NCBI GenBank assembly: GCA_021785395.1
Contig: JAJYFO010000002.1
Location: forward strand, 1 to 40,983
Direction: 5' to 3'
DNA length: 40,983 nucleotides
Source of the DNA: a bacterium
GTDB taxonomy: Bacteria; Cyanobacteriota; Vampirovibrionia; Obscuribacterales; JAKAZS01
Below the pieces are notes generated by a model. The model ran no database searches. It was given only the letters and a program-made list of their open reading frames with translations, and was not told the origin of the DNA. The position numbers were made by a program, and so were the translations under genes. Of the stretch, positions 3,944 to 22,578 are shown one piece after another. Each line of letters opens with the position of its first letter. The first letter of the stretch is position 1.

Positions 3944-4576
3944 ATGGCCATAAGTTACAGCCAAAAAACTGACCGAGAATTAGTGATCGCCTGTCAAGCA
4001 AGAGATAGCGGAGCTTTTGAGGAATTGGTTAGACGTTACCAGAAAACCGTTTATCATTTACTGTACCAGTTAGCTCCCGATTGGCACGATACAGCTGACC
4101 TATCTCAGGAAGTTTTTATTAAGGTATGGCGTTCGATAAACAGTTTAAGAAACCCGGCGGCATTTAAAATTTGGCTTACACAAATTGTTACAAATCTGTT
4201 TTATGACGAATTACGCAAACGCCCTAAACAGGTTCCTACTATTTCTATGGACGATAATGATGACTTTGACGGGGTTATGCAGGCTAGTAAAGAGATTCCC
4301 GATAGTCACAGTCTTCCCGATGAAGTTGTCATGAATCAAGAAATTTCGGTTGTCATCAGAAAAGCTATGGCAAAACTTCCGGAACAGTTTCGCGTTGCTA
4401 TCGTCTTAAGAGAAATAGAAGGTTTAACTTACGAAGAGATAGCTGTAATTATGAAAACCGAGATGGGAACAGTAAAATCTAGAATTGCTAGAGCCAGGAT
4501 GAAATTACAGGATTTGTTAGGGCCTTATTTGAATCAATCAACACAGGTAAAAGACGTTAAGACAACCGAGGTTTAG
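3944..4576 (+). CDS. ECF (group 4) RNA polymerase sigma-70 family factor
   Basis: Region 2 (YQKTVYHLLYQL..DLSQEVFIKVWRSI) and region 4 HTH (EGLTYEEIAVIMKTEMGTVKSRIARARMKL). The anti-sigma gene follows 8 nt downstream. Confidence 0.9.
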   Translation: MAISYSQKTDRELVIACQARDSGAFEELVRRYQKTVYHLLYQLAPDWHDTADLSQEVFIKVWRSINSLRNPAAFKIWLTQIVTNLFYDELRKRPKQVPTISMDDNDDFDGVMQASKEIPDSHSLPDEVVMNQEISVVIRKAMAKLPEQFRVAIVLREIEGLTYEEIAVIMKTEMGTVKSRIARARMKLQDLLGPYLNQSTQVKDVKTTEV

Positions 4577-4584
4577 ATATCCAT

Positions 4585-5490
4585 ATGCAAAATGTTAACT
4601 GTCTAAGTATTGAAAATCTTTCGGCGTTGTATGACAACCAATTGGAGAATTATGACCGTAATTTGGCTTATGGGCATTTGGGTCAATGTAAAGATTGTTC
4701 TTACCAGTTTGACCTGATAAGTAAGACCAGCGCTAATTTACGTAAGGGTTTTGAGCAGATGGCCAAGTCTTATAATGTCGATTTGGTCGGTAGGTTGACC
4801 TGCCAGAATGATGTCTGTAGTGCCATTGTCGTTGATTTGTCGGCCTTTGTCGACAATGAATTGACCCAGGCTGCCAGTGAAGGTATTAAATCGCACTTAA
4901 AGCATTGCAAGCCTTGTTTAGCTAAATTTAATGGTCTAAGAAATCTCAACCAAACCCTCCAAAATGCCTTTAAATTGCCAAATTCGCATAACATTGATTT
5001 GGTGGCAGCGATTAAAGATAAAATTAACAACGATTGCAAACAAATGGCTAGCGATTTTTCAGCCTTTCTAGATTCTTCTTTGAATACTACAAGGCATTAC
5101 GAAATTACCAAGCATTTAATGGCTTGTTCGAATTGTCAGAACCAGATTGATAAACTTATGGACGTAAGCAACCTTATAAAAACCGAATACCGAGCTCCGA
5201 TGGACGTTAATTTATTGCCGGGTATTCAAAATAAATTGAAATTGAAAGTTGTTAGCAATAAACCGGTTTCTAACGTTAAAAATTTAAAACTCCCCAAATT
5301 TGCTATAGCCAGTGTAGCCAGTTTTGTTGTATTATTGTTAGCCGGTACTGTATTGTTGAATTTTCCCAACGCAAGTATTGAAGACAAACCTTTGACTGCA
5401 GAATCTTATATACTCGACAATTCTTTTCTTGAAAACTCTGATTATGATTCCCACAAAAATGCCGAGGTGGTTTTATATGAACAACCTTAA
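4585..5490 (+). CDS. Membrane-anchored anti-sigma factor with three tandem zf-HC2 (ZAS) units and one C-terminal TM helix
   Basis: H-x3-C-x2-C occurs at H31/C35/C38, H104/C108/C111 and H177/C181/C184. Each is preceded by a Cys 25-26 residues upstream (C6, C78, C151). TM helix FAIASVASFVVLLLAGTVLL. The gene lies directly after the ECF sigma gene. Confidence 0.8.
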   Translation: MQNVNCLSIENLSALYDNQLENYDRNLAYGHLGQCKDCSYQFDLISKTSANLRKGFEQMAKSYNVDLVGRLTCQNDVCSAIVVDLSAFVDNELTQAASEGIKSHLKHCKPCLAKFNGLRNLNQTLQNAFKLPNSHNIDLVAAIKDKINNDCKQMASDFSAFLDSSLNTTRHYEITKHLMACSNCQNQIDKLMDVSNLIKTEYRAPMDVNLLPGIQNKLKLKVVSNKPVSNVKNLKLPKFAIASVASFVVLLLAGTVLLNFPNASIEDKPLTAESYILDNSFLENSDYDSHKNAEVVLYEQP

Positions 5491-5986: not shown

Positions 5987-7723
5987 ATGGAATTAATATT
6001 AACCGATTTGATTTGGCAGGCCTGTTTAATTCTTAAAGGCCAAAATGATTTAATTGTTGATATTGATAAAGATTCTATCGTCATAGAAAAGCCAAAGAAC
6101 CTAAGTTTTGGCGATTTCTCTTGTGGTTTGGCTTTTAAATTGAGTGTTAAAAACAAAAAGTCACCTCTGGATATAGCCAATATTATTCAGCAAGTTTTAG
6201 TTGCTAAAATTACCGAATATCAAAATTACATCAGCCAAATTAGTGTAAGTAAGCCTGGATACATTAATTTTACGGTTAGTCAAGGCTATTTATTATCAAT
6301 ACTGGATGAAATTTTAAATGACGGCGATAATTTTGGTCGGTCTAAATATAAAGATAAATTCTTGATAGAATACGTTTCGGCTAATCCAACCGGACCAATG
6401 CATATTGGGCACGCCAGAAACGCTGTTTTTGGTAGCTGTTTGTCTAATCTATTAAAATTTGCCGGATTCTACGTTGAAGAAGAATTCTATATCAATGATA
6501 CTGGTCAACAAATTATTAAACTTGGAAAAAGCCTTCTTGTCTGTTATCGGCGTGAATGCGGTAATTTAGATTATAATTATGATGACGACAGCTATCCAGA
6601 AAGTTTATTGATAGACACTGTAAGACAAATTTTGCATGACCATAAAAATAGTCTAAGTAATTTGACTGATGATCAATTGAGCGTTAGTTTAGCTAAACTG
6701 TTTATGGAACTAACTATAAATAGTCAAAAAGAAGAGCTAGAGCAGTTGAATATAAATTTTAATACCTGGTTTAGCGAAAAAACTCTCCACGACAATGGGT
6801 CAATTGATGAAATGCTCGATTTACTAAAGGCTAACAATATGACGTATGAGTTAGATGGTGCCTTATGGTTAAAATCAAAGGATTTGGGTGATGAGAGGGA
6901 CAGGGTTTTAATTAAAAATAATGGTCATTTGACTTATTTAGCTGTTGATGCAGCTTACCATTTAAACAAATATAAACGTGGGTTTGATAAAATCATAAAT
7001 ATCTGGGGGGCTGACCACCACGGCCAAATTCCCAGTTTGGCAGCTGTTTTAAAAGCGCTAGATTGCAATGTTGATTCATTTAAAGTTATTTTGACGCAAA
7101 TGGTAAATCTAACTAAAAATGGCGAGATACTGCGCATGTCCAAACGTATGGGTACTGTCGTTACCTTGAAAGAGGTTCTTGATGAAGTTGGTAGTGATGC
7201 CATGCGATATTTTTTAATAGAGTCAAGTCCCAGTAATTCAATTAATTTTGACCTTGAATTGGCCAAACAGGCTAGCAGTGAAAATCCCATATTCTATATA
7301 CAATATGCCCACGCAAGATCCTCTTCGATTATGCGTAAAGCCATGAGTTTGAGCCCAAGTTATAATTTGTTAAATTCAAGTGTTAAAGAGATTTATGCAA
7401 TATGCAAATCTAATAAAGATATTATCGAAAATGTTTTTGAAAACGATAACGAAAAATATAATTTACAGAAAAAAATAATCTTAGAGCTAGCTTATTTTAA
7501 GACGCTTGTGCAAGAAAGTGCCAATAGTTATTTACCCCATCGAATTGCGCATTTCGCGTATGAATTAGCTTATGACTTTCAGAAATTTTATGAAAATTCC
7601 AAAGTTTTATATTCCGATAATATCAATTTAAGTTTGGCCAGAATATTATTTGTTTTAGCCATTAGAACAGTTATAGGTAATTGCTTAAAAATACTCGGGA
7701 TTTCAGCACCAGAAAAAATGTAA
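5987..7723 (+). CDS. argS: Arginine--tRNA ligase
   Basis: SANPTGPMHIGHARN (HIGH) and MSKRMG (KMSKS-like). Typical N-terminal Arg_tRNA_synt_N region and DALR-type C-terminus. Confidence 0.95.
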   Translation: MELILTDLIWQACLILKGQNDLIVDIDKDSIVIEKPKNLSFGDFSCGLAFKLSVKNKKSPLDIANIIQQVLVAKITEYQNYISQISVSKPGYINFTVSQGYLLSILDEILNDGDNFGRSKYKDKFLIEYVSANPTGPMHIGHARNAVFGSCLSNLLKFAGFYVEEEFYINDTGQQIIKLGKSLLVCYRRECGNLDYNYDDDSYPESLLIDTVRQILHDHKNSLSNLTDDQLSVSLAKLFMELTINSQKEELEQLNINFNTWFSEKTLHDNGSIDEMLDLLKANNMTYELDGALWLKSKDLGDERDRVLIKNNGHLTYLAVDAAYHLNKYKRGFDKIINIWGADHHGQIPSLAAVLKALDCNVDSFKVILTQMVNLTKNGEILRMSKRMGTVVTLKEVLDEVGSDAMRYFLIESSPSNSINFDLELAKQASSENPIFYIQYAHARSSSIMRKAMSLSPSYNLLNSSVKEIYAICKSNKDIIENVFENDNEKYNLQKKIILELAYFKTLVQESANSYLPHRIAHFAYELAYDFQKFYENSKVLYSDNINLSLARILFVLAIRTVIGNCLKILGISAPEKM

Positions 7724-7816
7724 AATTAAAATCTAAAATTTTATCTAAGAGTATAGACTAATAACTACGATAAAGGGTATGATAGAACTAGATACAAAAA
7801 TTATAGGTTTATTACC

Positions 7817-8425
7817 ATGAATTATAATTGTAATTTTGAGTTATCCCAGGAAGAATGCCTAGTATTGTTGACCAGTTTGCGACTGCTCGATAAACTGGTT
7901 ATGGGGATGACGATTCACAATGAAAACCAGGATGAGTTAATTCAAAACCTGATTGACAAAGTATCCCAATCGCTTCCACAAAAGATGACTTCGGTTTCTA
8001 AATCTTTGGCTAATGCTATCTTAGATTCACTTTTAACTATAATTTACGAAGAATACATAAAAAACACCAATCCGGGTGAAAAACCCAGTAGTTTAATGTT
8101 TACCCACGATGAAGAAGATTTTCCGCCCATGTATTCAACTGAATCCACTCTTCCTCAATTGCAATCAGCCTTGGTTAACCATCACCAGGTTAAAGTGGAG
8201 TATTACAGCTTAGCTAAAGAATCGGTAGATTACCTCGATTTAAACCCTTTAACCATACAAGCTGACAATAATTTGTGGAAAATGCTGGCTTTTTGCCATC
8301 AAAAAGAAGAAATACTGAATTTTAGGATAGACCGTATTAAAAGTGTTGAAACTAGTGAACAGAAATTTAATATTCCAATTAATTTTAATATAAATAGCGT
8401 TAACGAATATTCTTTTTATAAATAG
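7817..8425 (+). CDS. WYL-domain protein lacking an N-terminal wHTH
   Basis: The C-terminal half, VKVEYYSLAKESVDYLDLNPLTIQADNNLWKMLAFCHQKEEILNFRIDRIKSVE, matches the WYL-domain pattern (x.Y.s....r.v.P..l....WYl.a.c......FrldRI). No DNA-binding HTH is evident in aa 1-110. Confidence 0.6.
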   Translation: MNYNCNFELSQEECLVLLTSLRLLDKLVMGMTIHNENQDELIQNLIDKVSQSLPQKMTSVSKSLANAILDSLLTIIYEEYIKNTNPGEKPSSLMFTHDEEDFPPMYSTESTLPQLQSALVNHHQVKVEYYSLAKESVDYLDLNPLTIQADNNLWKMLAFCHQKEEILNFRIDRIKSVETSEQKFNIPINFNINSVNEYSFYK

Positions 8426-8766
8426 GCGATTTTAATCGATATTTTACTATAATTTGTCAGTTTAGAACCTTTTTAGTTATCCCTTAATCCCTCATCGAAA
8501 ATGCAATGATCGTATCGTAAAGCTAAGCGTCCTCGATACGATAATTTATCTTTAGACTTTTCATTTAGGGTGATAATTATGCAATAAGTAATTTCTAACC
8601 CAAAAACTTTGATTTAACCTAGATATTTTTTTTTGCTGAAACAAGCACCAGATTACATTCTCGCCTTAAGATTCTAACCTAAGGACTTGTCTTAAGTTTA
8701 GGTTTCAATCTTACATCTTTGAATAATAGCGATGTATTTAAGTTTTATGATTGTCCAATAATCGGT

Positions 8767-9903
8767 TTACATCATGGGCATGCGCAAGTCTTCGCCAAGT
8801 TCTATTTTTAACTCGTCACCGGGGCGAACTTCGACTTTTTTCCCTTTTTTGGCTAAAAATATGGCGACACCGATGGCTGCACCAACACCAGCGCCAATTA
8901 AAGCTCCGCCGCCTTTGCCGATCGAACTGCTAGCCGAACTACCAGCCAGATATCCGATACCTACACCTAAGGCAGCCGGCAGAACAACCATTGAACTACA
9001 GATGACGACATCTTTTAAGCCACGTTTAGCGTGAACAATGCCACCTCTTGCCACAAGATTCGCGACAATCGGTATTTGGCGGTTATCGGGTGTGGTCACC
9101 GTATCAAATTTCAAAGCTACCGACCCTGATCGGTTAAGATGCTTGGGTGGATTTAATTTGGCAATTCTTCCGCGTATAATAGATCCGGCCGGAACCGCTA
9201 CTTGCCCATCTATGTCTAAGTCCTCGGCTGTGCGGGCTGAAAATTCATCGCTTTCCTGAGATGTATCGCTATCTACGGCTGTGTCCATAATTATAGGAAT
9301 TTTTGTACCAACAGGAACTACTCTAACGTATCCTTGTAAAACTTTATTGGCAATTTTGGTCTTTTCACCGTCTGTTGTTTCAGTGTCATCGGCGCTGTCG
9401 TTTGCATTGGCGGTTTGCGCGTTTTTATCGTCAGCTGTTTCGCTTGAATCAGCTTTGTCAGAGCTAGCCGTTTCGTTAGAATTGTTTGTGTTAGTCTGAT
9501 TGCTGCTAGTGTCTTCGCTTACATTGCTATTACCGGTATCATCACTAGCCGTTGCTTTGCTGTTGGCCGTCTTTTCAGCGCTATCACTTGATTCAGTATT
9601 ATTTGTAGAATCATTTGCTTGGCTTGCAACCTTGTCACTGGCTTTGGTGCTAGTGCCGTCATTCGGCAACGGGGCGTCACTGGTATTAGTGTTATCGCTA
9701 ACAGGTTCTTCTTTAAATAAATTGGGCGAACCGGGCTTATTTGTTGGGGTATCGGCTGAATTGGATGCCGCATCATCATTGCTGTCACCTTGGTAGACTT
9801 TGAAGTTTAAGTTTTGACTATCCTGAGCTAGAGCGTAGGGCAAGGAATGGTTTAAAAATATGCTTAATGCGGTAATTGTAATGACTGATTTTTTAAATTT
9901 CAT
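8767..9903 (-). CDS. Secreted protein: signal peptide, ~150-aa S/T/N/D-rich low-complexity linker, TrbI/VirB10-like beta segment, C-terminal glycine zipper
   Basis: MKFKKSVITITALSIFLNHSLPYALA signal. VPVGTKIPIIMDTAVDSD..VAVPAGSIIRGRI..GSVALKFDTVTTPDNRQIPI resembles the TrbI/VirB10 C-terminal pattern. GGGALIGAGVGAAIGVAIF is a Gly-zipper. Confidence 0.55.
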   Translation of the reverse strand: MKFKKSVITITALSIFLNHSLPYALAQDSQNLNFKVYQGDSNDDAASNSADTPTNKPGSPNLFKEEPVSDNTNTSDAPLPNDGTSTKASDKVASQANDSTNNTESSDSAEKTANSKATASDDTGNSNVSEDTSSNQTNTNNSNETASSDKADSSETADDKNAQTANANDSADDTETTDGEKTKIANKVLQGYVRVVPVGTKIPIIMDTAVDSDTSQESDEFSARTAEDLDIDGQVAVPAGSIIRGRIAKLNPPKHLNRSGSVALKFDTVTTPDNRQIPIVANLVARGGIVHAKRGLKDVVICSSMVVLPAALGVGIGYLAGSSASSSIGKGGGALIGAGVGAAIGVAIFLAKKGKKVEVRPGDELKIELGEDLRMPMM

Positions 9904-10263
9904 TTTTGTATACCTTGTTTGAACGTGACCCCTAAAATTTAAAACCTAGTTATAAAGTATCGTATATATAGGTTGAGCAGTCAAGCAGTTGACTGAATTT
10001 AGTCTAACATTCTTAAAATATTAATCAAATTAAGTGTTTTAAAGAAATCAACAGGAAATATTAATTTTGCTAAATGTATCATTTTTGATATATTTAACAC
10101 ATAGTTTCTGGTGCAATTTTGAGCCAGATTAGACGCAAAATCATAGTGCAATTATGTTTTTAGCTTATATTTTTTTTATTTTAGCTTTATTTATTTTTCT
10201 TTATGATTTTTTATTAACATTTTTTTAATTTCTGCTACAATAAACTTATATGAGGAATTTACA

Positions 10264-12039
10264 TTGATACAGTGCCATATTTGCCAGGTTATGAACGAAG
10301 ACAATGCCAGATTCTGTGCTGAATGTGGTCAAAGATTTGTTAAGGCGACTAATTCTAATATAGAGGCCATTCAGCCTGCTAACTTGACTAATTCAAACCA
10401 GATTAAGACAAATATACTTTGGAACGATGAAGAGATCGAAAATGATGACGATTCTAAAGTTAGTAAGACAGAATTTAGCAATCGGCCGACACTTAAAAGT
10501 AGCAATTCGGCGCAAAATAGTTTAGGATCTAGTAATCCAAATAACCAATCAACGACTAATAAGGAAAATATGACCGATTTTAATAATTCTAACTCCGATA
10601 ATCCGAAATCTTCAAAAATTCGTTTGCACTCTCCGCTTTTAGGCTCAGCCGTCGATAACGATGAGTCTAATGAAGACCAGACCATGTATCCGGTTAATAA
10701 TTCCAAAAATAGAGGTAAGGGAAAATTGCATTCGCCACTTTTAGGCGGCAGTGAAGACGATGACGATTATAATGATGGCGATTATAAAGGTAGTAAACCC
10801 AATATTAACGGTAAAGGTAAATTACATTCGCCCTTATTAGGAGGATCTGGCGATGACGATTTTGATAATTATGGTGACCGTAATTTTAAGGGTAATAAAC
10901 CTGGTACCAGCGGTAAAAGCAAATTACATTCGCCCTTGTTAGGAGGATCTGGCGATGACGATTTTGACAATTATAGTGACCGTAATTCTAAGGGTAATAA
11001 ACCTGGAACCAGCGGTAAAGGTAAATTGCATTCGCCCTTGTTAGGTGGATCTGACGATGACGATTTTGACGATTATAATGACCGCAATTTTAAGGGTAAT
11101 AAACCTGGTGGCATTGGTAAGGGAAAATTACACTCGCCATTACTAGGTGGAGCTGACGATGATTTCGATAATTATGATAACCGCAATTTTAAGGGTAATA
11201 AACCTGGTGGCAGTGGAAAGGGTAAATTGCATTCGCCATTACTAGGTGGAGCTGACGATGATTATTTTGGTAATTATGATGATCGTAATTTTAAGGGTAA
11301 TAAATCTGGCGGCAGCGGCAAGGGGAAATTACATTCACCTTTATTGGGTGATAGTCTGGATAATTTCGATGATGACGACAACTACAGTTATGAAGAAATT
11401 AACGACCCGAATGTGCTCAGATCACCACTTTTATTGTCAAAAGTTCATACCAATGAACCTAAGCAAACAAATTCTAAATTGAATAATATAAATCCGGCCA
11501 AAATTTCCGATATCCAAAATGATGACACAGGCGTTGATTTAAAAAGTAACAGACCGCTTGAAAGTATAGATTCAGTTGATGAATCGCCTAACATTATAAG
11601 TAAATCTAGGACAAATTATGATGAAATTGATATGCCCGGCTTAAGCCAGTCTAAACCTAATACTAAACTAATTAAACCGGACAATCCTAAACCAATCAGT
11701 TCCAATCTATCCCCAAAATTGACCAGGCAAAACCTTTCCCAAATCACTAATGAAGTTGAAGCGGAAATCGATAATTCCAAAAATCGTAGTCCCGTTAAAG
11801 CTAAAAATATGGCCAAAGAAACCGGAAGTTTCCCTAATAGTCTATCTGGAGCAAGGGTTAAAATTAACCCTGCGGCTATTGTAATGATTTCTATAGCATT
11901 ATTCGTTAAAATAGGTTATATTGTTTTAATATTTACACAAAAGCCCCAGGCAATTAATTTAACCTTTTTCGTAAATGAAATTTCGCAAATTTTATTGTTT
12001 GTAGGTTGTTTAATAGCCGTAAATTCAATAAAAAATTAA
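10264..12039 (+). CDS. Zinc-ribbon / tandem-repeat / C-terminal two-TM membrane protein, function unknown
   Basis: N-terminal CHIC..x11..CAEC zinc ribbon. Eight LHSPLLG repeats. C-terminal hydrophobic helices AAIVMISIALFVKIGYIVLIF and ISQILLFVGCLIAV. TTG start with GAGGA 6 nt upstream. Confidence 0.7.
   Translation: MIQCHICQVMNEDNARFCAECGQRFVKATNSNIEAIQPANLTNSNQIKTNILWNDEEIENDDDSKVSKTEFSNRPTLKSSNSAQNSLGSSNPNNQSTTNKENMTDFNNSNSDNPKSSKIRLHSPLLGSAVDNDESNEDQTMYPVNNSKNRGKGKLHSPLLGGSEDDDDYNDGDYKGSKPNINGKGKLHSPLLGGSGDDDFDNYGDRNFKGNKPGTSGKSKLHSPLLGGSGDDDFDNYSDRNSKGNKPGTSGKGKLHSPLLGGSDDDDFDDYNDRNFKGNKPGGIGKGKLHSPLLGGADDDFDNYDNRNFKGNKPGGSGKGKLHSPLLGGADDDYFGNYDDRNFKGNKSGGSGKGKLHSPLLGDSLDNFDDDDNYSYEEINDPNVLRSPLLLSKVHTNEPKQTNSKLNNINPAKISDIQNDDTGVDLKSNRPLESIDSVDESPNIISKSRTNYDEIDMPGLSQSKPNTKLIKPDNPKPISSNLSPKLTRQNLSQITNEVEAEIDNSKNRSPVKAKNMAKETGSFPNSLSGARVKINPAAIVMISIALFVKIGYIVLIFTQKPQAINLTFFVNEISQILLFVGCLIAVNSIKN
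10621..11436 (+). repeat. In-frame tandem coding repeat, unit 96-102 bp (32-34 aa)
   Basis: AAATTRCAYTCGCC (KLHSP) recurs at 10723, 10819, 10921, 11023, 11125, 11224 and 11326, giving spacings of 96, 102, 102, 102, 99 and 102 bp. Diverged copies lie at 10624 and 11416. Confidence 0.9.
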
Positions 12040-15372: not shown

Positions 15373-18123
15373 TTAAATATTTTCAAGATTTGAAAAATGT
15401 AATTTATTACGTCCTCGTCTGGAAATATTGGCTTTAAGCCAATCATATCGGCTAGTATCATTGGAAAAAATAATTATTTGGTTGTAGTTTGTGATATTCC
15501 TGGCAAGAAATTCAAAATATTTAAGCATTGATTCGTCATCACAGTTGTAAAATGGATCAATAATTACCATGGGAATCCTTTGGTTATTGGTAATAAGCTT
15601 GAATAAACTTAGCCTAATTAGTAGTTCTATAAAATCTATTTTATTAATTAAAATATTTTTATGCGCTATGTCATTAAGATTTATTGTGGTGTCAGGTTTG
15701 GTTGTAACGAAAATACTGAAATCGGCATCAATAAATATATTAGATATGCCAAAGTCTTGTTCAAACGTTGTATTGCGTTCAAAAATTAACTCTAATTCGC
15801 GATTAATTGAATTGACCCAATATTTTAAATCTGGTTTAGATACTTCTTTTATTTTATTAGCAGCAATATAGATTGAATAATCGAAAGTTATGAATGAAAT
15901 TAACTTATTGGTCAAAAAATTAAGCTCATGTTGATTGTTCAAAAACTTTTCGTCAATTTCTTTTCGATTACTATTAATCAGGTTAGCTGTATTTGTAAAT
16001 TTTTGTAATAGCTCTTGTTTGTTTAAGCCAGGCAACAATAACTTATCAGCTTTGTCATTGATCTGGGTAATTTTATCTTCTATTTTGTTAATCGCAGCAA
16101 TTGTGTGGTCGATTACTGAATCTATGTCGTCAATTTGTGTAACTTGAATACTTATATCTTCAGATTCAATAATTTCGTTCCATTTATGAATCGTTGAAAG
16201 TCTTGATTTGTAGATTTCATAAGATTCTTCGAAGGTATTTAAATTTAAAATATTAAACTGAGAAAAAATCTGGGCGATTTTTTGATTTGTGGTATTAAGC
16301 GAATCTATAAGATTTTGACGTCTATTTTGACCAGCATCAATACTTTCTTTAGAATCGTTAAATATATCGCGACTTGATTTAAAAACATTGAGTTCAGAAC
16401 ATAGTTTTTCCAAAAAATCATAAGTTAATTCATTGTATTCAACCGAATTTTTATTGAGTATAGTAGCAATTTTGTCAATTATATTTTTTATTTCAACTTG
16501 TTTTGTATGAATCATTGGACCAATAACGCTTATATTGGTTTTACTAGTTTTAATGTTGTTTAACGTTGTAGTAAGCTTTTCTTGACTGGCATTAATTATT
16601 GAAATTTTATTCTTGATAATAGCTTTGTTATTTTGAAGTATATTTAATTCAGAATTGATGTCTGAAACATTTTGGGATGATGATTTGTTTTTGTTTTTTA
16701 GTACAACTAGTATTCCTGTTATTATTGCAAAAGTAAAACCGACTGCCAACAATAAAAGATAAATTCCTTGCAATGCTTGATGATTAAGTAAAAGTTGGTA
16801 CAATGAAGAACCAATTAAGCCAAGTGAAATTAAACTAGATGTAATAATTATGGGTAGATAAAATTTAGATATAGGACTAACTTTAACTTTATCTAATTCT
16901 TTATTTAACTGAATTTCTTGTTGATCCAAAATTGTTAATTCGTTTTGAGCTGCTTTTAAAAGGGCTTCATTAGTTTTAATGCTTATTTTGGTATCATTAA
17001 TTACGGCATCATTAATTTTAAGGTACGTTGCACTAACGTTTGGAGCTTTTGGATTGTTTTGCTTTTGTAAGTCATTTAATTCATTGTATAATTTTTTTAA
17101 ATTTGTTAATCCGTTATTGATTTCTAATATATCAGTATCAGTGATAGAACTGTATTTTGTATATTTTGACTGAAGTTCGTTTATGTTTTTATCAAATTCG
17201 TTTTTGGTTAAAATTAATTCAGTTTCTAATTTGTTAAAATCGTTAATTGAATTGTTACGCTCTATGATTAATTTTTCAGCTTCAGCCTCAATTATTTTTA
17301 AGATATTATTGTCAACAATAATATCTGCCCAATTAAATTTATGTTGTTTAACTTCATTTTGAATAATTTTAAGTTTTTTTAGTAAATCATTTAAATTATT
17401 AAGTTTGTTTTGATAAACAAAAATATTTTGCTGTTCATCAATAGTTTTAAACTTATCTAGATCTAGATTAATATTTTCTAATTCAATGATTAAGGATGAA
17501 TTATCATTTCTTTTACGGTCAAGAGTTTTTTGTACTTCATAGCATTTAGCTATTTTTGTTTTATGGTCGTTAATAAGGTTCTTTATATCTTTTTCAAAAT
17601 ATAAATCTGTCGAAGAAATTAATTCTAATGCTTTATGCGATTGAATAAATATATTATTTAAAATACCTTTTATTTTTTCGCTTAGACCTGTTACTTGTTC
17701 TTTTTGGTCTAAATAAGATAGGCTATACAAAAATGATAAATCAATTATTTCACTATCAATTCCTGTAATTACTTTATTAAGTAGATTGCTGTTATTTGCA
17801 AATAAATTTTTGGCATTTTCGTTATCAAAAGGTGGTTCTAATACTTTTATTTTAGAATTATGTAAATCCTTGATAATTTTTAAATGTTTTTCATGTAAAT
17901 TAATAATGAGAGCTATTTCGCCCAAATTATTATTTTGAGGCTTTTTTATAAAATTATCGGTGTCTGATTTGTTTTCGTACAAAACCAAATAAACAGATTT
18001 GGCTAGTTTATCTTTACTTGCCTCAGAATCGACTATAATGATGTTAATTTTATCTTCTAGAAAACATAATTTTTTATCATTAAAATTGCCGTATTGCTTA
18101 AAAATTACTTCTTCAATCCACAT
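15373..18123 (-). CDS. SbcC/Rad50/YhaN-like long coiled-coil protein with degenerate ATPase head motifs and a central two-TM hairpin
   Basis: N-terminal head MWIEEVIFKQYGNFNDKKLCF..INIIIVDSEASKDKL. C-terminal head IPMVIIDPFYNCDDE..IIIFSND. Long heptad-rich arms. Hydrophobic helices at aa ~420-444 and ~452-475. ATG 18123 has AAGAGG upstream and overlaps the upstream gene by 11 nt. Confidence 0.6.
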   Translation of the reverse strand: MWIEEVIFKQYGNFNDKKLCFLEDKINIIIVDSEASKDKLAKSVYLVLYENKSDTDNFIKKPQNNNLGEIALIINLHEKHLKIIKDLHNSKIKVLEPPFDNENAKNLFANNSNLLNKVITGIDSEIIDLSFLYSLSYLDQKEQVTGLSEKIKGILNNIFIQSHKALELISSTDLYFEKDIKNLINDHKTKIAKCYEVQKTLDRKRNDNSSLIIELENINLDLDKFKTIDEQQNIFVYQNKLNNLNDLLKKLKIIQNEVKQHKFNWADIIVDNNILKIIEAEAEKLIIERNNSINDFNKLETELILTKNEFDKNINELQSKYTKYSSITDTDILEINNGLTNLKKLYNELNDLQKQNNPKAPNVSATYLKINDAVINDTKISIKTNEALLKAAQNELTILDQQEIQLNKELDKVKVSPISKFYLPIIITSSLISLGLIGSSLYQLLLNHQALQGIYLLLLAVGFTFAIITGILVVLKNKNKSSSQNVSDINSELNILQNNKAIIKNKISIINASQEKLTTTLNNIKTSKTNISVIGPMIHTKQVEIKNIIDKIATILNKNSVEYNELTYDFLEKLCSELNVFKSSRDIFNDSKESIDAGQNRRQNLIDSLNTTNQKIAQIFSQFNILNLNTFEESYEIYKSRLSTIHKWNEIIESEDISIQVTQIDDIDSVIDHTIAAINKIEDKITQINDKADKLLLPGLNKQELLQKFTNTANLINSNRKEIDEKFLNNQHELNFLTNKLISFITFDYSIYIAANKIKEVSKPDLKYWVNSINRELELIFERNTTFEQDFGISNIFIDADFSIFVTTKPDTTINLNDIAHKNILINKIDFIELLIRLSLFKLITNNQRIPMVIIDPFYNCDDESMLKYFEFLARNITNYNQIIIFSNDTSRYDWLKANISRRGRNKLHFSNLENI

Positions 18124-19366
18124 TATAACCTCTTAGCATTTTATTATTTAAAGCATCAAGACCATAAAATAAGGCTTTATCTATAATTTTAGACGTATCT
18201 ATAGTTTTGTGTTGTTTATCTAATATACTTTGGATATCCGGGTCTTCAGGTATTAATCTTGAGATATTTTCGTTGGCATATTCTTTTTTGTAATTTTTAA
18301 TTTCTTCGATGTATTTCAACTGGATACTGTCAGGTTTAAATTGAACAGCTAAATAATCGGGTCTAGCTTCATTAATAATTTCATAGTAATAAAAATCATT
18401 TAAGAAGTTAATTATTGGCTTAAAATAGTCATTTTCATCAATACTATAATTACCAAAAAGTCTTAATATAATCAAATCACTATTTTTAACGGCTTCTACT
18501 TCATGACATAAAGCTTCTATTTCATTAACTAAATTTTCGCTACTTAAACTGCCAACGTTAATAGTTAAATTTATAATTTTGCGCCATGGGTCATATACTT
18601 TTTGTTGATTAAAATTGTAATTACCAGGACTTCCTGACAATTTTACTATGCTTACATTAGATATTTCATCAATGGCTTTTGAAGTTATGTAGGTATTGGC
18701 AGTGCTTAAAATATGGGTATTATTCTCTTTCGTGTAATTGTTTTCTACATAACTCGAAGTTGCAATAAAATCGACGTTTTTTTCTATAAATTGGTCTATA
18801 TTACAAGTATAAGTAAAATGGTTGTCAAAAATAAAATTATTTGAATAATAGCGTCCGTATGGTATTGACAATAAAAGAATATTGAGTCCTTCGTCAATTT
18901 TTAAATTTGGCTTTGGCTCGAAATTATAGTTATAATTGGCTCCATGGATAAATATATTTTTATTAATGGCAAAACTTTGGTACTCATTACTACTAAAAAT
19001 ATGGACATTATCGGACCAAGTCTTTAGGTTAAGAGCTTTTAATAGATTATTGTCATAGGCTAGTTTGAAACTATTATTATTACTGGATATTGGTGCTATA
19101 TAAAAATTTATGTCGTTGTTTTGGGCTAGTACTTCAACAAATTTTTGTTGCGTCTGGGTTCGAACGTTACAGGTGTCAAATAGTCCACCTGGGATTAATA
19201 CGTGTTTAATATTATAGTTGTTAAGGTTGGCTAGCAAATTAAGTATATTGTCGATTAACTCATTGTTTAACGTGGTAATCTGTTGACTGTTAAGATTAAA
19301 GTCACTAAATAACTCCGGACAATCAATTTGCGGTGAGGATAATAATAAAAATTCAAAATTTTCCAT
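18113..19366 (-). CDS. SbcD/Mre11/YhaO-like calcineurin-fold protein with substituted metal-binding motifs (predicted catalytically inactive)
   Basis: Relic motifs: FLLLSSPQID (for hhhhsDxHhg), VLIPGGLFD (for GDLFD), FYIAPISSNNN (for GNHD), NVHIFSS. Translationally coupled to the SbcC-like gene. Confidence 0.5.
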   Translation of the reverse strand: MENFEFLLLSSPQIDCPELFSDFNLNSQQITTLNNELIDNILNLLANLNNYNIKHVLIPGGLFDTCNVRTQTQQKFVEVLAQNNDINFYIAPISSNNNSFKLAYDNNLLKALNLKTWSDNVHIFSSNEYQSFAINKNIFIHGANYNYNFEPKPNLKIDEGLNILLLSIPYGRYYSNNFIFDNHFTYTCNIDQFIEKNVDFIATSSYVENNYTKENNTHILSTANTYITSKAIDEISNVSIVKLSGSPGNYNFNQQKVYDPWRKIINLTINVGSLSSENLVNEIEALCHEVEAVKNSDLIILRLFGNYSIDENDYFKPIINFLNDFYYYEIINEARPDYLAVQFKPDSIQLKYIEEIKNYKKEYANENISRLIPEDPDIQSILDKQHKTIDTSKIIDKALFYGLDALNNKMLRGYNVD

Positions 19367-19373
19367 ATATAAC

Positions 19374-20576
19374 CTAAGGTTTAGACACTATTGTAGCAAT
19401 ACCTTGACCAACACCGATGCACATTGTTGCTAATCCATAATTGAAATTTTGACGTTTCATCTCGTAAATAAGTGTGGTTAATATGCGAGCACCACTTGCT
19501 CCAAGAGGGTGTCCAAGAGCTATAGCTCCCCCGTTTATGTTGACTTTATCTTGGTTCAGCTTTAACTCATTAATACACGCTAAGCTTTGAGCGGCAAAAG
19601 CCTCATTTAATTCAATTAAATCTATTTGTTCTAGCTTTAAGCCAGCTCTCACTAGACATTTTTGAGTAGCGTATACTGGACCTATTCCCATAATAGCTGG
19701 GTCTACCCCGCACACACTTGACGCTACAAAGCGAGCAAGAGGTTTTAGATTTAACTCATTTACAATTCTTTCACTCACAATGAGTAGCACACAGGCACCG
19801 TCATTAATTCCGGAAGAATTACCAGCTGTGACACTTCCATTTTCACTAAAAGCTGGCTTTAGCCTAGTTAAATCTTCAAGTTTAGAGTTTGCACGCGGGT
19901 GCTCGTCAGCATTAAATATAAAGCTTTGCTTTTTTTGTTTGATTTCAATTGGAATAATTTCATCTGCAAATTTGTTGTCGGCTTTAGCTTTGGCGTATTT
20001 AAGCTGACTAGATAAGGCAAATTCGTCCTGATTTTTTCTTGATATGTTATATTTAACAGCGACATTTTCGGCTGTCTGACCCATTGTATATGGGTAATGC
20101 TGTTTAGCTAGTTCGCTATTAATAAATCGCCAGCCAATTGTTGTATCATATAAAGTGGTATCACCTCTTTGAAATGGGTCAGTAGGCTTAGCCATCACAA
20201 ATGGAGCTCTAGACATTGATTCAACCCCACCAGCTATAAATATATCACCTTCATTAGCTAAAATAGAAGTACATGCCATATTAACAGCCATAAGACCCGA
20301 ACCGCAAAGCCTATTAATAGTTGATCCAGCTACCGTAACCGGTAATCCGGCTATTAGACTTGCCATACGTCCAATATTTCTATTATCTTCGCCAGCCTGA
20401 TTGGAGCAACCAAGGATGACGTCGTCAATTTGTTCCGGGTTAATTTTAGGATTGCGCTTAATTAGTTCTTTTATAACTATGGCAGCCATATCGTCTGGCC
20501 TAATTGAACTTAGGCTTCCGGCGTATTTACCAAATGGAGTTCTTAAACCGTCTATGATGTAGGCTGTTTTATTCAT
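19374..20576 (-). CDS. Acetyl-CoA C-acetyltransferase (thiolase II family)
   Basis: NRLCGSGL (active Cys), GNSSGINDGA, NINGGAIALGHPLGASGARI and CIGVGQGIA motifs. ATG 20576 has AAGGA 8 nt upstream. The ORF-track start at 20582 is also possible. Confidence 0.93.
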   Translation of the reverse strand: MNKTAYIIDGLRTPFGKYAGSLSSIRPDDMAAIVIKELIKRNPKINPEQIDDVILGCSNQAGEDNRNIGRMASLIAGLPVTVAGSTINRLCGSGLMAVNMACTSILANEGDIFIAGGVESMSRAPFVMAKPTDPFQRGDTTLYDTTIGWRFINSELAKQHYPYTMGQTAENVAVKYNISRKNQDEFALSSQLKYAKAKADNKFADEIIPIEIKQKKQSFIFNADEHPRANSKLEDLTRLKPAFSENGSVTAGNSSGINDGACVLLIVSERIVNELNLKPLARFVASSVCGVDPAIMGIGPVYATQKCLVRAGLKLEQIDLIELNEAFAAQSLACINELKLNQDKVNINGGAIALGHPLGASGARILTTLIYEMKRQNFNYGLATMCIGVGQGIATIVSKP

Positions 20577-22578
20577 TACCATTATCCTTTGGGTCTAAAA
20601 TCCACCAGGTGTTGTCGGATACAAGTTTTTCGAGTATGTAGCTGGGAGTTTTTAAATTTTTGGCGACACTAGCTCTGACATTAGGATTAGGGTCGAGGCT
20701 TAATTTACTCAATGTCTGCGTATCTGTATTGGGATTTTGAGCTACTAGAAGTCTGATTTTATCATAGGCGTTCTGACTCAATTTTACCAAAACCGAGTCA
20801 GGTGATTTGCCATTTTTGGCTAGCTCTATTAAAACAAGTTTGTCATTTGTGTTAAGAAGACTTTCTAATAAATCTTCTGGGCTTTTAGAATTACCAGCTA
20901 GAACTGCTTTAATGGCGATGTCTGGGTTATTACTTAATTTATTTAGTATATTTACGGGTGTATTATTGCTGCCGGCTAAGAGCAAATGTAATTCTTTGCC
21001 AGCGTGATTATAGATGGTATCATATAATTCATTGGGTAAATTTGGAAGTGTTAAAATCCTCTGGCTTAGGACTATATCGTCAGTATTGGCTAGCCTTAGC
21101 AAAAGCGAAGTTGGCGTGTTTTTGTTTATTACCAGCAATCTTAGGATAAATGAGTTCTTTTCAGTGGCCAAGCTATTTATTACAGTTACCGGTGTTAGGT
21201 CATTTTTAGCTAGAGCAATTTTGATTTTATCATCATTTAGATTATATAATTCGTTGAATAAACCATCTCTATGGCTGTATACTTCATCGTTACCAGCAAA
21301 ATTATTATTGGCTAGAGCTAGAAGTGCACCATAACTACCATTTTTCAAAAGTTCTTTGACACAGGCGTAGGGGATGAATTTATTGCTAGCTAAGGCTGTT
21401 TTTACAATTGAATTATCTATTTGAGCTAAATTTAGATATTCTGTTTCGGTTAAATCAACCCTTAGGGCTAGAGACGCTAAAACACTCGTACAATTTGATT
21501 TTAACAGATTAGTACGAGTTTTAGAATCCAATTTGGGTAATTGACTTATGGCCGTTAAAATGCGTGGATCTTTATCGCTAGACAAATTGTAGATATAATC
21601 CAATGGTGTAATAGGATTCAAAACGACAGCATATCTAACTTTTCCGTTACTATCGATTGATAATTTTTTTAAATCTGTTAAGGAAATATTTTTGTTATGG
21701 GCGGCTTCGGCTCTTACCATGAAATTCTGGTCTTGGGACAATTTGCTTAATAGAGTGGACGAAGCGTTTGGATTACTGGCTATAGCCTGCCTTACGATAG
21801 AATTCTTATCGTTAACGAGGTAGGTTAAATTTTCTATGGTACAGTTGTTATTAGCTGCTACCAGCGACCGAACACCTAAATCTCCATCGTGGCTTAGGAT
21901 AGTTAAAACTTCTTGGTTTTGGTTGGCTTGTTGAGCTAGACAGGTTCTTATCGTTCGGTCTCCGGTTTTAGCCAGGTAAATTTTTAACTCTTTTGATGAG
22001 CTTTTATTTAAGGCCAAATTAATGAGCATGACTTGCGTTTTGACACTGCTTAAGGCAAGTGTGTAAAGCGTTTTGGCCGGCACCTTAGGATTTAAGGCCA
22101 GTAACTCGTATATTTGTGGCTCCTGGCATTTTATTATTTGATTTATAACAGCTTCACTTAAAGCATTGGGGTTTTGTAATAGATAAGCTTTAACCAGCGA
22201 AGTTGAATTGGCAGCCAGATTATAGGCTGTATTGGCTGGAATTCTGGGGTTTGAGGCGACTGCACTTTTATATACATCATAAATTCGAGGGTTTTGATTG
22301 ACACCTGAATTGGCAATTTTATTTAAGCACTCGGTTGGACAATTAGGATTTGATAAGGCAAATAGACTTACAAAAGGTAAAGGATGTTTATAAATTAAAT
22401 TTTTATTAAAGTCGTACCTTGGGATTAAAGTATCGATCCATAAATCGTGATAACTACCAATATTAAATTCTTCATCTTTTACGGTAGAATTTTGAGAGCT
22501 GGCAAAGTTGGCACTAACGCCTAAAAAAAGGATTATCACTATAATATATTTTTTTAAATTTATCTTAATTAAATTCAT
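20569..22578 (-). CDS. Secreted leucine-rich-repeat-variant (LRV/HEAT-like) repeat protein
   Basis: Signal peptide MNLIKINLKKYIIVIILFLGVSANFASS. More than 20 degenerate ~23-24-aa repeats of the form D..VR.a.A.NPN.p...L.kLs, for example VRQAIASNPNASSTLLSKLSQDQNFMVRAEAAHNKNISLTDLKKLS. Confidence 0.6.
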   Translation of the reverse strand: MNLIKINLKKYIIVIILFLGVSANFASSQNSTVKDEEFNIGSYHDLWIDTLIPRYDFNKNLIYKHPLPFVSLFALSNPNCPTECLNKIANSGVNQNPRIYDVYKSAVASNPRIPANTAYNLAANSTSLVKAYLLQNPNALSEAVINQIIKCQEPQIYELLALNPKVPAKTLYTLALSSVKTQVMLINLALNKSSSKELKIYLAKTGDRTIRTCLAQQANQNQEVLTILSHDGDLGVRSLVAANNNCTIENLTYLVNDKNSIVRQAIASNPNASSTLLSKLSQDQNFMVRAEAAHNKNISLTDLKKLSIDSNGKVRYAVVLNPITPLDYIYNLSSDKDPRILTAISQLPKLDSKTRTNLLKSNCTSVLASLALRVDLTETEYLNLAQIDNSIVKTALASNKFIPYACVKELLKNGSYGALLALANNNFAGNDEVYSHRDGLFNELYNLNDDKIKIALAKNDLTPVTVINSLATEKNSFILRLLVINKNTPTSLLLRLANTDDIVLSQRILTLPNLPNELYDTIYNHAGKELHLLLAGSNNTPVNILNKLSNNPDIAIKAVLAGNSKSPEDLLESLLNTNDKLVLIELAKNGKSPDSVLVKLSQNAYDKIRLLVAQNPNTDTQTLSKLSLDPNPNVRASVAKNLKTPSYILEKLVSDNTWWILDPKDNGNE

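Follow-up and report, generated by a model that had tools for sequence, protein, structure and literature searches.

What function is left to a Rad50-like protein that has lost nearly all of its catalytic residues for ATP binding and hydrolysis, and what keeps its gene intact? This question is raised by a 916-amino-acid (aa) protein encoded on the minus strand, at nucleotides (nt) 15373..18123, of a 40,983-nt stretch of contig JAJYFO010000002.1 (assembly GCA_021785395.1), where the open reading frame (ORF) is present in the ORF list; this whole stretch is referred to here as the window, and all unlabelled positions are positions within it. An earlier reading of the sequence (the original prediction) described the protein as a Rad50/SbcC/YhaN-like coiled-coil protein with dead ATPase motifs and a membrane hairpin in place of the zinc hook, and suspected that the 417-aa product of the adjacent gene was also degenerate. 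Our analysis favors, with a probability of roughly 0.75, a non-catalytic, membrane-anchored coiled-coil scaffold or tether descended from the YhaN/YhaO (SbcE/SbcF) Rad50/Mre11-like pair.

Searches with the single sequence gave a weak signal. The match to Pfam AAA_27 (PF13514, the YhaN N-terminal domain) is sub-threshold (E = 0.023; 14.7 bits, with the gathering threshold at 22) and spans aa 1–204 and profile positions 1–192 of 206; a word-indexed homologue search returned no match beyond the protein itself, because its low-complexity composition swamped the prefilter; and a phmmer search of PDB sequences gave no match for the 916-aa protein and nothing meaningful for its partner, and NCBIfam and PADLOC gave zero matches for either. 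The missed Pfam threshold and the lack of a PDB sequence match would suit a low-complexity coiled-coil membrane protein that resembles SMC-like heads by chance, an explanation that is refuted by the remaining evidence and retains practically no probability. An exhaustive phmmer search of 1.8 billion representative proteins identified 49 family members at E ≤ 0.001, with E-values down to 1e-15 for those of approximately 975 aa; one of them (P0037) is a close relative with 39% identity, and the others are mostly 900–1000 aa long and 13–17% identical to the window protein. AAA_27 was found by Pfam in 29 and AAA_23 in 23 of the 31 aligned homologues, and JGI labels on the relatives read “uncharacterized protein YhaN” or “SbcCD ATPase subunit”; the Bacillus subtilis YhaN sequence was not among the profile search matches. 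The proposed SMC-like similarity becomes significant once profiles are compared: in hhalign, the profile of the window clade aligned end to end with 15 canonical members (probability 100%, E = 3.2e-43, 879 columns), and the canonical family profile matched both head lobes of Pyrococcus furiosus Rad50 (E = 6.5e-11). Synteny and a gene overlap common to the canonical loci, described below, and the structural match to Rad50 also speak against chance.

The structure predicted by AlphaFold from the 31-sequence alignment has a mean predicted local distance difference test score (pLDDT) of 77, with 85–93 in the heads, and runs from an N-terminal strand/P-loop-helix lobe through helices at aa 140–414, two further helices (419–445 and 450 onward) and helices to aa 783, to a C-terminal alpha/beta lobe. 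In Foldseek, Rad50 (7zr1_C, E = 1.9e-14) ranks first among the PDB matches of this model, ahead of Smc5/6, condensin and MukB, and the secondary structure of the model has the bipartite head and antiparallel coiled coil of Rad50 and SbcC. The 916-aa protein, although it misses the AAA_27 gathering threshold, is therefore a member of the YhaN/SbcE (AAA_27) branch of Rad50/SbcC-like ATPases, homologous end to end with recognised members, and the head architecture named in the original prediction is confirmed.

The catalytic motifs were located from alignments with 30 and then 71 homologues, and their conservation was scored in 65 canonical relatives. The canonical columns N-E-x-G-K-[ST]-T (Walker A), L-S-x-G-x-x-E-Q (signature), h-h-L-D-E-P-F (Walker B) and S-C-H (H-loop) are 98–100% conserved in these relatives, so that the mismatches in the window protein cannot be attributed to chance. 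In the alignments, DSEASKDK lies opposite xxNEYGKST, ILINKIDF opposite (Q)LSxGxxEQ, VIIDPF opposite ILDEPF and FSND opposite FSCH, and each peptide previously quoted for Walker A, the signature, Walker B and the H-loop thus occupies the motif column that had been guessed for it; the segment given for Walker B (nt 15529..15576) corresponds to aa 850–865, IPMVIIDPFYNCDDES. In Walker A, NEYGKST has become SEASKDK, with Gly replaced by Ser, Ser by Asp and Thr by Lys, and with Lys37 kept. The earlier statement that both Walker A glycines are lost holds for the second Gly, as does the loss of Ser and Thr, but not for the first, since the first Gly of the textbook motif is missing in the entire family (E/x-x-N-E-Y-G-K-S-T) and only one Gly has been lost specifically in the window protein. 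In the signature motif, which reads I-L-I-N-K-I-D-F, Ser825 is replaced by Leu, Gly827 by Asn and Gln831 by Phe; in Walker B, Asp is replaced by Ile and Glu by Asp (Asp856 in the Glu position). A pattern search of the whole protein detected no GxxxxGK[ST], hhhhD[DE], CxxC or LSxG, and thus no intact P-loop elsewhere. Two of the eight scored catalytic residues are retained, which leaves the protein short of a functional set of ABC-type motifs; the catalytic positions still in place are Lys37, the D-loop Asp862 and Gln882, possibly together with the Q-loop Gln (Q140, hhalign alignment). The residues that serve Mg-ATP binding, formation of the ATP sandwich dimer and ATP hydrolysis have thus been lost from the 916-aa protein, which is accordingly predicted neither to bind nor to hydrolyse ATP.

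The 417-aa partner, encoded immediately upstream, has no match in Pfam, but 29 homologues were identified, many of them PF00149 proteins annotated as metallophosphoesterase or SbcD/Mre11 in Candidatus Obscuribacterales and Melainabacteria. Its AlphaFold model (pLDDT 79) yielded 75 PDB matches at E ≤ 0.001, the best 50 of which are all Mre11 or SbcD (Mre11 4fcx, E = 2.9e-10; SbcD 6s6v, E = 3.6e-8), and has the phosphoesterase and capping-domain fold of these proteins. The five phosphoesterase motifs SDVHLD/PGD/GNHD/H/GHxH are altered to SSPQID/PGG/ISSN/S/SSYV, so that no metal ligand is left at any of the seven positions (D, H, D, N, H, H, H) and the motif III His is also lost; the suspicion that the partner is degenerate was therefore well founded, with the Mre11/SbcD fold kept. 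The best-conserved element of the partner family is ALYYGLDAL in its last helix, which reads ALFYGLDAL in the window protein and contains the invariant columns A398, L399, G402, L403 and A405. By analogy with the Mre11/SbcD architecture, this helix would bind the coiled-coil base of the ATPase subunit, where A754, W769 and N774 of the 916-aa protein are retained, and the head of the 916-aa protein probably still binds the pseudo-nuclease in a predicted complex.

Between the head lobes, the model places two antiparallel arms of approximately 280–310 residues each, with ascending helices to aa 414 and descending helices to aa 783, in agreement with the long arms described originally. The arms meet in two hydrophobic helices, for which the Kyte–Doolittle peaks over 19 aa are 1.81 (aa 423–441) and 2.74 (aa 456–474), and both of which are covered by nt 16699..16866 (aa 420–475), the range assigned earlier to the central helices. 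The loop between them, QLLLNHQALQ, is uncharged, and Lys-rich segments lie on both sides, an arrangement compatible with placement of both arms on the cytoplasmic side; on the basis of these positive-inside flanks, the hairpin would anchor the apex in the cytoplasmic membrane. No CxxC zinc hook was found by pattern search in the 916-aa protein, which contains four Cys in total. The proposal of a central hairpin instead of a zinc hook was correct in both respects but does not set this protein apart, since nearly the whole family has such a hairpin: most of the 65 canonical relatives carry it at the equivalent position, and it is seen in fully canonical proteins of Eisenbacteria, Pyrinomonadales and Armatimonadota. 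The central membrane segment that the original prediction ascribed to Bacillus YhaN-type proteins has a published counterpart, as B. subtilis SbcE/YhaN has no CxxC and contains a unique, completely insoluble central domain, the first half of which is hydrophobic, with a conserved proline (PMC2811018), and YhaN of Staphylococcus haemolyticus is a predicted membrane protein that was recovered by surface shaving (PMC7137321). Separately, a subclade with proteins of approximately 920 aa (L018, L023, L027, L031, L038 and L041; ATPase genes at approximately 7226..10020) has lost the transmembrane hairpin; its apex reads “KKVMFVLPGG”, again without CxxC, and some of its metagenome-assembled genomes (MAGs) are labelled Drouetiella or Planktothrix.

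The relationship of the window pair to catalytically intact pairs was established from a scan of one genome per species, which gave 80 loci, one from each of 80 genomes; L numbers (L002 and so on) denote individual loci or contigs where they are named. An ATPase gene for approximately 950–1000 aa lies directly downstream of the phosphoesterase gene in 77 of the 80 loci. In the window, the two genes overlap by 11 nt (AATGTGGATTGA), a stretch that encodes both the partner C-terminus (NVD-stop) and the ATPase N-terminus (MWIE) and is preceded by AAGAGG, and the same overlap length recurs in most of the 77 related loci. This arrangement would imply translational coupling, which, like the invariant last helix of the partner and the retained residues at the coiled-coil base, gives indirect support to a physical complex of the two subunits, and the dual coding probably explains the near-invariant termini of both proteins. 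The order LRV/HEAT-repeat gene, thiolase gene, phosphoesterase gene and AAA_27 ATPase gene was found by tblastn to be common to more than 60 Melainabacteria loci or species, the degenerate ones included, and the junctions in the window (18113..22578) measure −14, +7 and −11 nt, a spacing that suggests a single operon. Because this synteny is shared, the window pair is the Melainabacteria positional ortholog of intact YhaN/YhaO pairs and not a stray paralog. We are not aware of any functional connection between thiolases and Rad50-like complexes. Five MAGs with a Melainabacteria-type locus (L013, L080, L064, L031 and L018) are labelled Proteobacteria, Actinobacteria, Planktothrix or Drouetiella, labels that probably reflect mislabelled or contaminated bins.

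Loss of catalytic residues is graded across this set. The outgroup phyla are canonical in both nuclease and ATPase. Among 67 Melainabacteria loci, all seven nuclease ligands are present in 18 (four of which have the motif III His), five or fewer in 49 and two or fewer in 29, whereas the ATPase retains all eight scored residues in 54 of 61 loci. A pair with a dead nuclease and a live ATPase occurs in most Melainabacteria species (L007–L062; e.g., L054, L048 and L011): in Candidatus Obscuribacter phosphatis (L054, 6001..7170 of that locus), the nuclease motifs read SDIALD/PGGLFE/PGLCDL/LVGSL/ALGLADN, while the ATPase is intact (NEYGKTT/LSTGTKEQ/IIMDEPF/SCH). The predominance of this form indicates that the nuclease was lost first, and makes it probable, as judged from the motifs, that the complex serves mainly for something other than end processing in the phylum. 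It would also suit a diverged, repurposed paralog whose role is unrelated to DNA, for instance in membrane organisation or envelope tethering, with an intact SbcCD or YhaN-type system elsewhere handling DNA ends. Tight packing with the thiolase and LRV/HEAT-repeat genes hints in the same direction, namely at a non-DNA function in the phylum. However, synteny marks the locus as orthologous to the canonical pair rather than as an extra copy, the scan gave a single locus in each of the 80 species-level genomes, and the data point to no specific non-DNA ligand; repurposing of this kind is accordingly judged improbable, although it has better prospects than any other alternative considered here.

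The ATPase is degenerate in seven sequences only, namely the window protein with L005 and L006 (one clade), L045 with L061, L063 and L064, and in all seven the partner keeps at most four of the seven ligands. In a neighbor-joining tree, the ATPase-degenerate sequences fall on at least three separate long branches, with long-branch attraction possible between the first two groups (window/L005/L006 and L045/L061). The Walker A triplets of the window protein (aa 36–38, nt 18010..18018), L005, L006, L045, L061, L063 and L064 are SKD, NKE, NKE, SKD, SKS, LKE and TKC, respectively: the Lys is kept in every case, and the Ser that follows it is often replaced by an acidic residue, which may represent convergent filling of an empty phosphate site.

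These residues also bear on the possibility that the protein is a nucleotide switch, in which ATP or another nucleotide is bound via Lys37, with Asp856 at the Walker B Glu position, and in which absent or very slow hydrolysis controls head engagement. Such a switch would account for the Walker A Lys in all seven sequences of at least three lineages, for the persistence of Asp862, Gln882 and perhaps the Q-loop Gln, and for the catalytic-base position, which is Asp in the window protein and Glu in L005 and L006. It is nevertheless unlikely, because neither the P-loop Gly nor the Mg-coordinating Ser/Thr remains and an Asp or Glu in place of the Ser would repel phosphate; moreover, the protein has no signature motif with which to form the ATP sandwich, Ile or Val stands at the Walker B Asp position, the H-loop His is missing, and conservation of the head has fallen to the level of the arms.

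This last point was quantified by pairwise comparison. Head identity is 54–57% among canonical lineages and 21% between the window and canonical proteins, and within the degenerate clade the heads (37–42% identity) are no better conserved than the arms (34–40%); the particular constraint on the heads that characterises the family is therefore gone in this clade. Each of the two reading frames runs uninterrupted in the window, L002, L005 and L006, with the 11-nt overlap, and the sequences differ by a synonymous divergence (dS) greater than 2. Between L005 and L006 (dS 0.29), the ATPase-like gene has a ratio of nonsynonymous to synonymous divergence (dN/dS) of 0.166 and the partner gene one of 0.193, and the ratio is 0.14–0.19 in every region, heads, arms and hairpin alike. 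The gene is thus not absent or disrupted but intact in the nearest relatives, where it is under purifying selection. Purifying selection, taken together with the lost head constraint, indicates that the proteins are maintained but no longer as enzymes.

Gene decay would offer a simpler account: the pair would have become unneeded in an AT-rich, fast-evolving lineage and would be drifting toward pseudogenes, with motif loss as a sign of relaxed selection. The 916-aa gene has a GC content of approximately 25%, compared with approximately 37% for neighboring genes; the protein is extreme in Ile, Asn, Leu and Lys; the window branch is the longest in the tree; and, of the 66 columns with at least 90% conservation among canonical proteins, just 27 are retained in the window protein, whose conservation is flat along its length. 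These features would be expected of decay, which does not, however, readily explain complete frames in at least four genomes or contigs separated by dS > 2, the low dN/dS of the L005/L006 pair, retention of the 11-nt overlap and the Shine–Dalgarno-like AAGAGG, or conservation of length, hairpin position and the C-terminal block QIIIFS..RYDWLK.NISRRGRNKLH at 38% overall identity. Decay is therefore considered the least probable of the alternatives other than chance resemblance, slightly below the nucleotide switch.

In the membrane-anchored scaffold that is favored here, the apical hairpin would anchor the complex in the cytoplasmic membrane, the head module would still hold the pseudo-nuclease partner, and the whole would act as a static, nucleotide-independent scaffold or tether approximately 40 nm long (the arm length at 0.15 nm per residue) linking the membrane to a ligand of the head module. 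By analogy with SbcE, DNA is the most likely head ligand as a default guess. ATP-driven clamping and nuclease activity would have been given up in the window lineage, the nuclease first. The ATP-hydrolysis-independent, membrane-inserted tether of the original prediction is thus consistent with the data, its function still being inferred. A stronger version, in which both subunits are inert yet selected as a membrane-anchored tether of about this length, the end point of a phylum-wide trend in a family whose core job is structural, is put forward tentatively, at slightly less than even odds. Several points weigh against the scaffold. Membrane insertion rests on hydropathy and family conservation; the retained Lys37, Asp862 and possible Q140 may leave residual nucleotide binding; dN/dS refers to the sister lineage L005/L006 and not to the window lineage itself; and the packing with the thiolase and LRV-repeat genes, with its hint of a non-DNA function, counts on the same side.

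Part of this picture is already known: the family itself has been described, as have the phosphoesterase that accompanies it and the hydrophobic center. Like SbcE/SbcF (YhaN/YhaO; PF13514 and PF00149) of B. subtilis, the window pair is encoded by adjacent genes, with the phosphoesterase upstream of an SMC-like protein of approximately 920–1000 aa, and, compared by description, the 916-aa protein shares with SbcE the Rad50-like bipartite head, the two long heptad arms and the hydrophobic center that replaces CxxC (PMC2811018). SbcE is seen in polar foci and takes part in double-strand-break repair, competence and transformation (PMC2811018). What separates the Melainabacteria pair from this Firmicutes pair is the loss of all seven metal ligands in the partner and, in the ATPase-like protein, of the signature, the H-loop His, the Walker B Asp and the Walker A Gly/Ser/Thr. 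With Rad50/Mre11 and SbcC/SbcD it has in common the fold of both proteins and the operon pairing of nuclease and ATPase, but it has a membrane hairpin at the apex instead of a zinc hook, and, given the loss of catalytic residues in both proteins, the ATP-driven clamp and nuclease cycle of Rad50/Mre11 is predicted not to operate. Further close counterparts are the canonical Melainabacteria/Obscuribacterales pairs (e.g., L013, L036, L047 and L056) and the widespread dead-nuclease form (e.g., L054), which have the same locus, 11-nt overlap, length and hairpin; ATPase motifs are intact in both of these forms and lost in the seven degenerate sequences. The only experimental study of the YhaN/YhaO family found in the searchable literature was PMC2811018, in addition to a proteomics table. 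That literature contains no description of a Rad50/Mre11-type pair in which both subunits are catalytically dead yet selected, in line with the earlier remark that no such version was known, nor of a graded series of nuclease and ATPase loss across one phylum.

The Melainabacteria series constitutes a natural separation-of-function set at one orthologous locus, comprising fully canonical pairs, pairs in which only the nuclease is dead, and pairs in which the ATPase is dead as well. What selection keeps in the absence of catalysis (both arms, the hairpin, the C-terminal block of the head and the last helix of the partner) shows the contribution of the scaffold itself. To our knowledge, the membrane hairpin of this widespread family has never been explained; were the inert pair found to retain its localisation and ligand binding, this would speak for membrane tethering rather than end resection as the conserved function. 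The core job of the family would then be structural (membrane-to-DNA or membrane-to-partner tethering) rather than DNA-end processing, and Rad50/Mre11 would join the enzyme systems that have natural pseudoenzyme descendants. The weight of the finding is limited in that the organisms are uncultured and function is deduced indirectly. The positions of all features are listed in Table 1.

Table 1. Features of the window, with positions, strand and supporting evidence.
Feature	Position (nt)	Strand	Evidence
YhaN/SbcE-type Rad50-like protein, 916 aa, degenerate ATPase motifs (putative pseudo-ATPase)	15373..18123	-	ORF, hhalign, AlphaFold, Foldseek
N-terminal head lobe, aa 1–139, beta strands and P-loop helix	17707..18123	-	pLDDT 80–92; strand/helix order like Rad50 N-lobe; weak AAA_27 match
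Walker A remnant, aa 31–40 VDSEASKDKL (family VExNEYGKST)	18004..18033	-	alignments
Ascending coiled-coil arm, aa 140–418	16870..17706	-	model helices 140–258, 272–320, 329–356, 372–414
Apical transmembrane hairpin (two hydrophobic helices), aa 419–478	16690..16869	-	hydropathy; model helices 419–445 and 450 onward; flank charges
Descending coiled-coil arm, aa 479–790	15754..16689	-	model helices to aa 783; breaks mirror those of the ascending arm
C-terminal head lobe, aa 791–916	15376..15753	-	pLDDT 85–93; aligns with signature/Walker B/H-loop lobe of relatives
Signature-motif remnant, aa 822–834 KNILINKIDFIEL (family xQLSxGxxEQLHW)	15622..15660	-	alignments
Walker B remnant, aa 850–858 IPMVIIDPF (family LPIILDEPF)	15550..15576	-	alignments
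H-loop remnant, aa 884–890 IIFSNDT (family IIFSCHQ; S-C-H to S-N-D)	15454..15474	-	alignments
Partner/ATPase gene overlap, 11 nt, AATGTGGATTGA	18113..18123	-	sequence
Mre11/SbcD/YhaO-type partner, 417 aa (putative pseudo-nuclease)	18113..19366	-	PF00149 homologues, AlphaFold, Foldseek, ligand count
Phosphoesterase motif I remnant LSSPQIDC (family LSDVHLDS)	19319..19342	-	alignment
Phosphoesterase motif II remnant IPGGLFD (canonical IPGDLWD)	19175..19195	-	alignment
Phosphoesterase motif III remnant APISSNN (canonical APGNHDY)	19076..19096	-	alignment
Phosphoesterase motif IV remnant LLSIPY (canonical LFHGSL)	18857..18874	-	alignment
Phosphoesterase motif V remnant ATSSYVE (canonical ALGHYHD)	18743..18763	-	alignment
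Partner last helix, aa 391–407, motif ALFYGLDAL	18146..18196	-	invariant columns, model helix 391–407
Upstream thiolase gene	19374..20582	-	Pfam, tblastn synteny, gene calls in L003/L004
Upstream LRV/HEAT-repeat gene	20569..22578	-	Pfam, tblastn synteny, gene calls in L003/L004
Downstream cytochrome c gene, longest-ORF reading 133 aa, PF13442	15060..15461	-	ORF list, Pfam
ECF sigma/zf-HC2/WYL/TrbI-like region	3944..5490; 7817..8425; 8767..9903	+; +; -	

The window as a whole is ordinary core chromosome, with genes for MetK, ArgRS, PFK, SucCD, GpsA, HolB, PurA and RibD; assignment of the pair to a known defence system (Lamassu, Wadjet or Gabija) is unsupported in view of the NCBIfam and PADLOC results. 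A scan for promoters and terminators scored no better than shuffled sequence. The apparent 89-nt overlap of the 3′ end of the 916-aa gene with the cytochrome c ORF was rejected as a longest-ORF artefact, the deposited gene call being 83 aa. The cytochrome c gene and an SppA gene are syntenic also in L005 and L006. Elsewhere in the window, a 591-aa ORF at 10264..12039 (+), for which no Pfam match was found, has a zinc-ribbon-like N-terminus (CxxC...CxxC), hydrophobic C-terminal segments and tandem repeats at 10809..11350 (5.3 copies of a 102-nt, 34-aa unit with 86% matches; “GKGKLHSPLLGGSxDDDFDNYxDRNFKGNKPGG”). Upstream of this repeat-protein region lie genes for a WYL-domain protein and a weakly TrbI-like ORF, and an ECF sigma factor gene adjoins a zf-HC2 anti-sigma gene.

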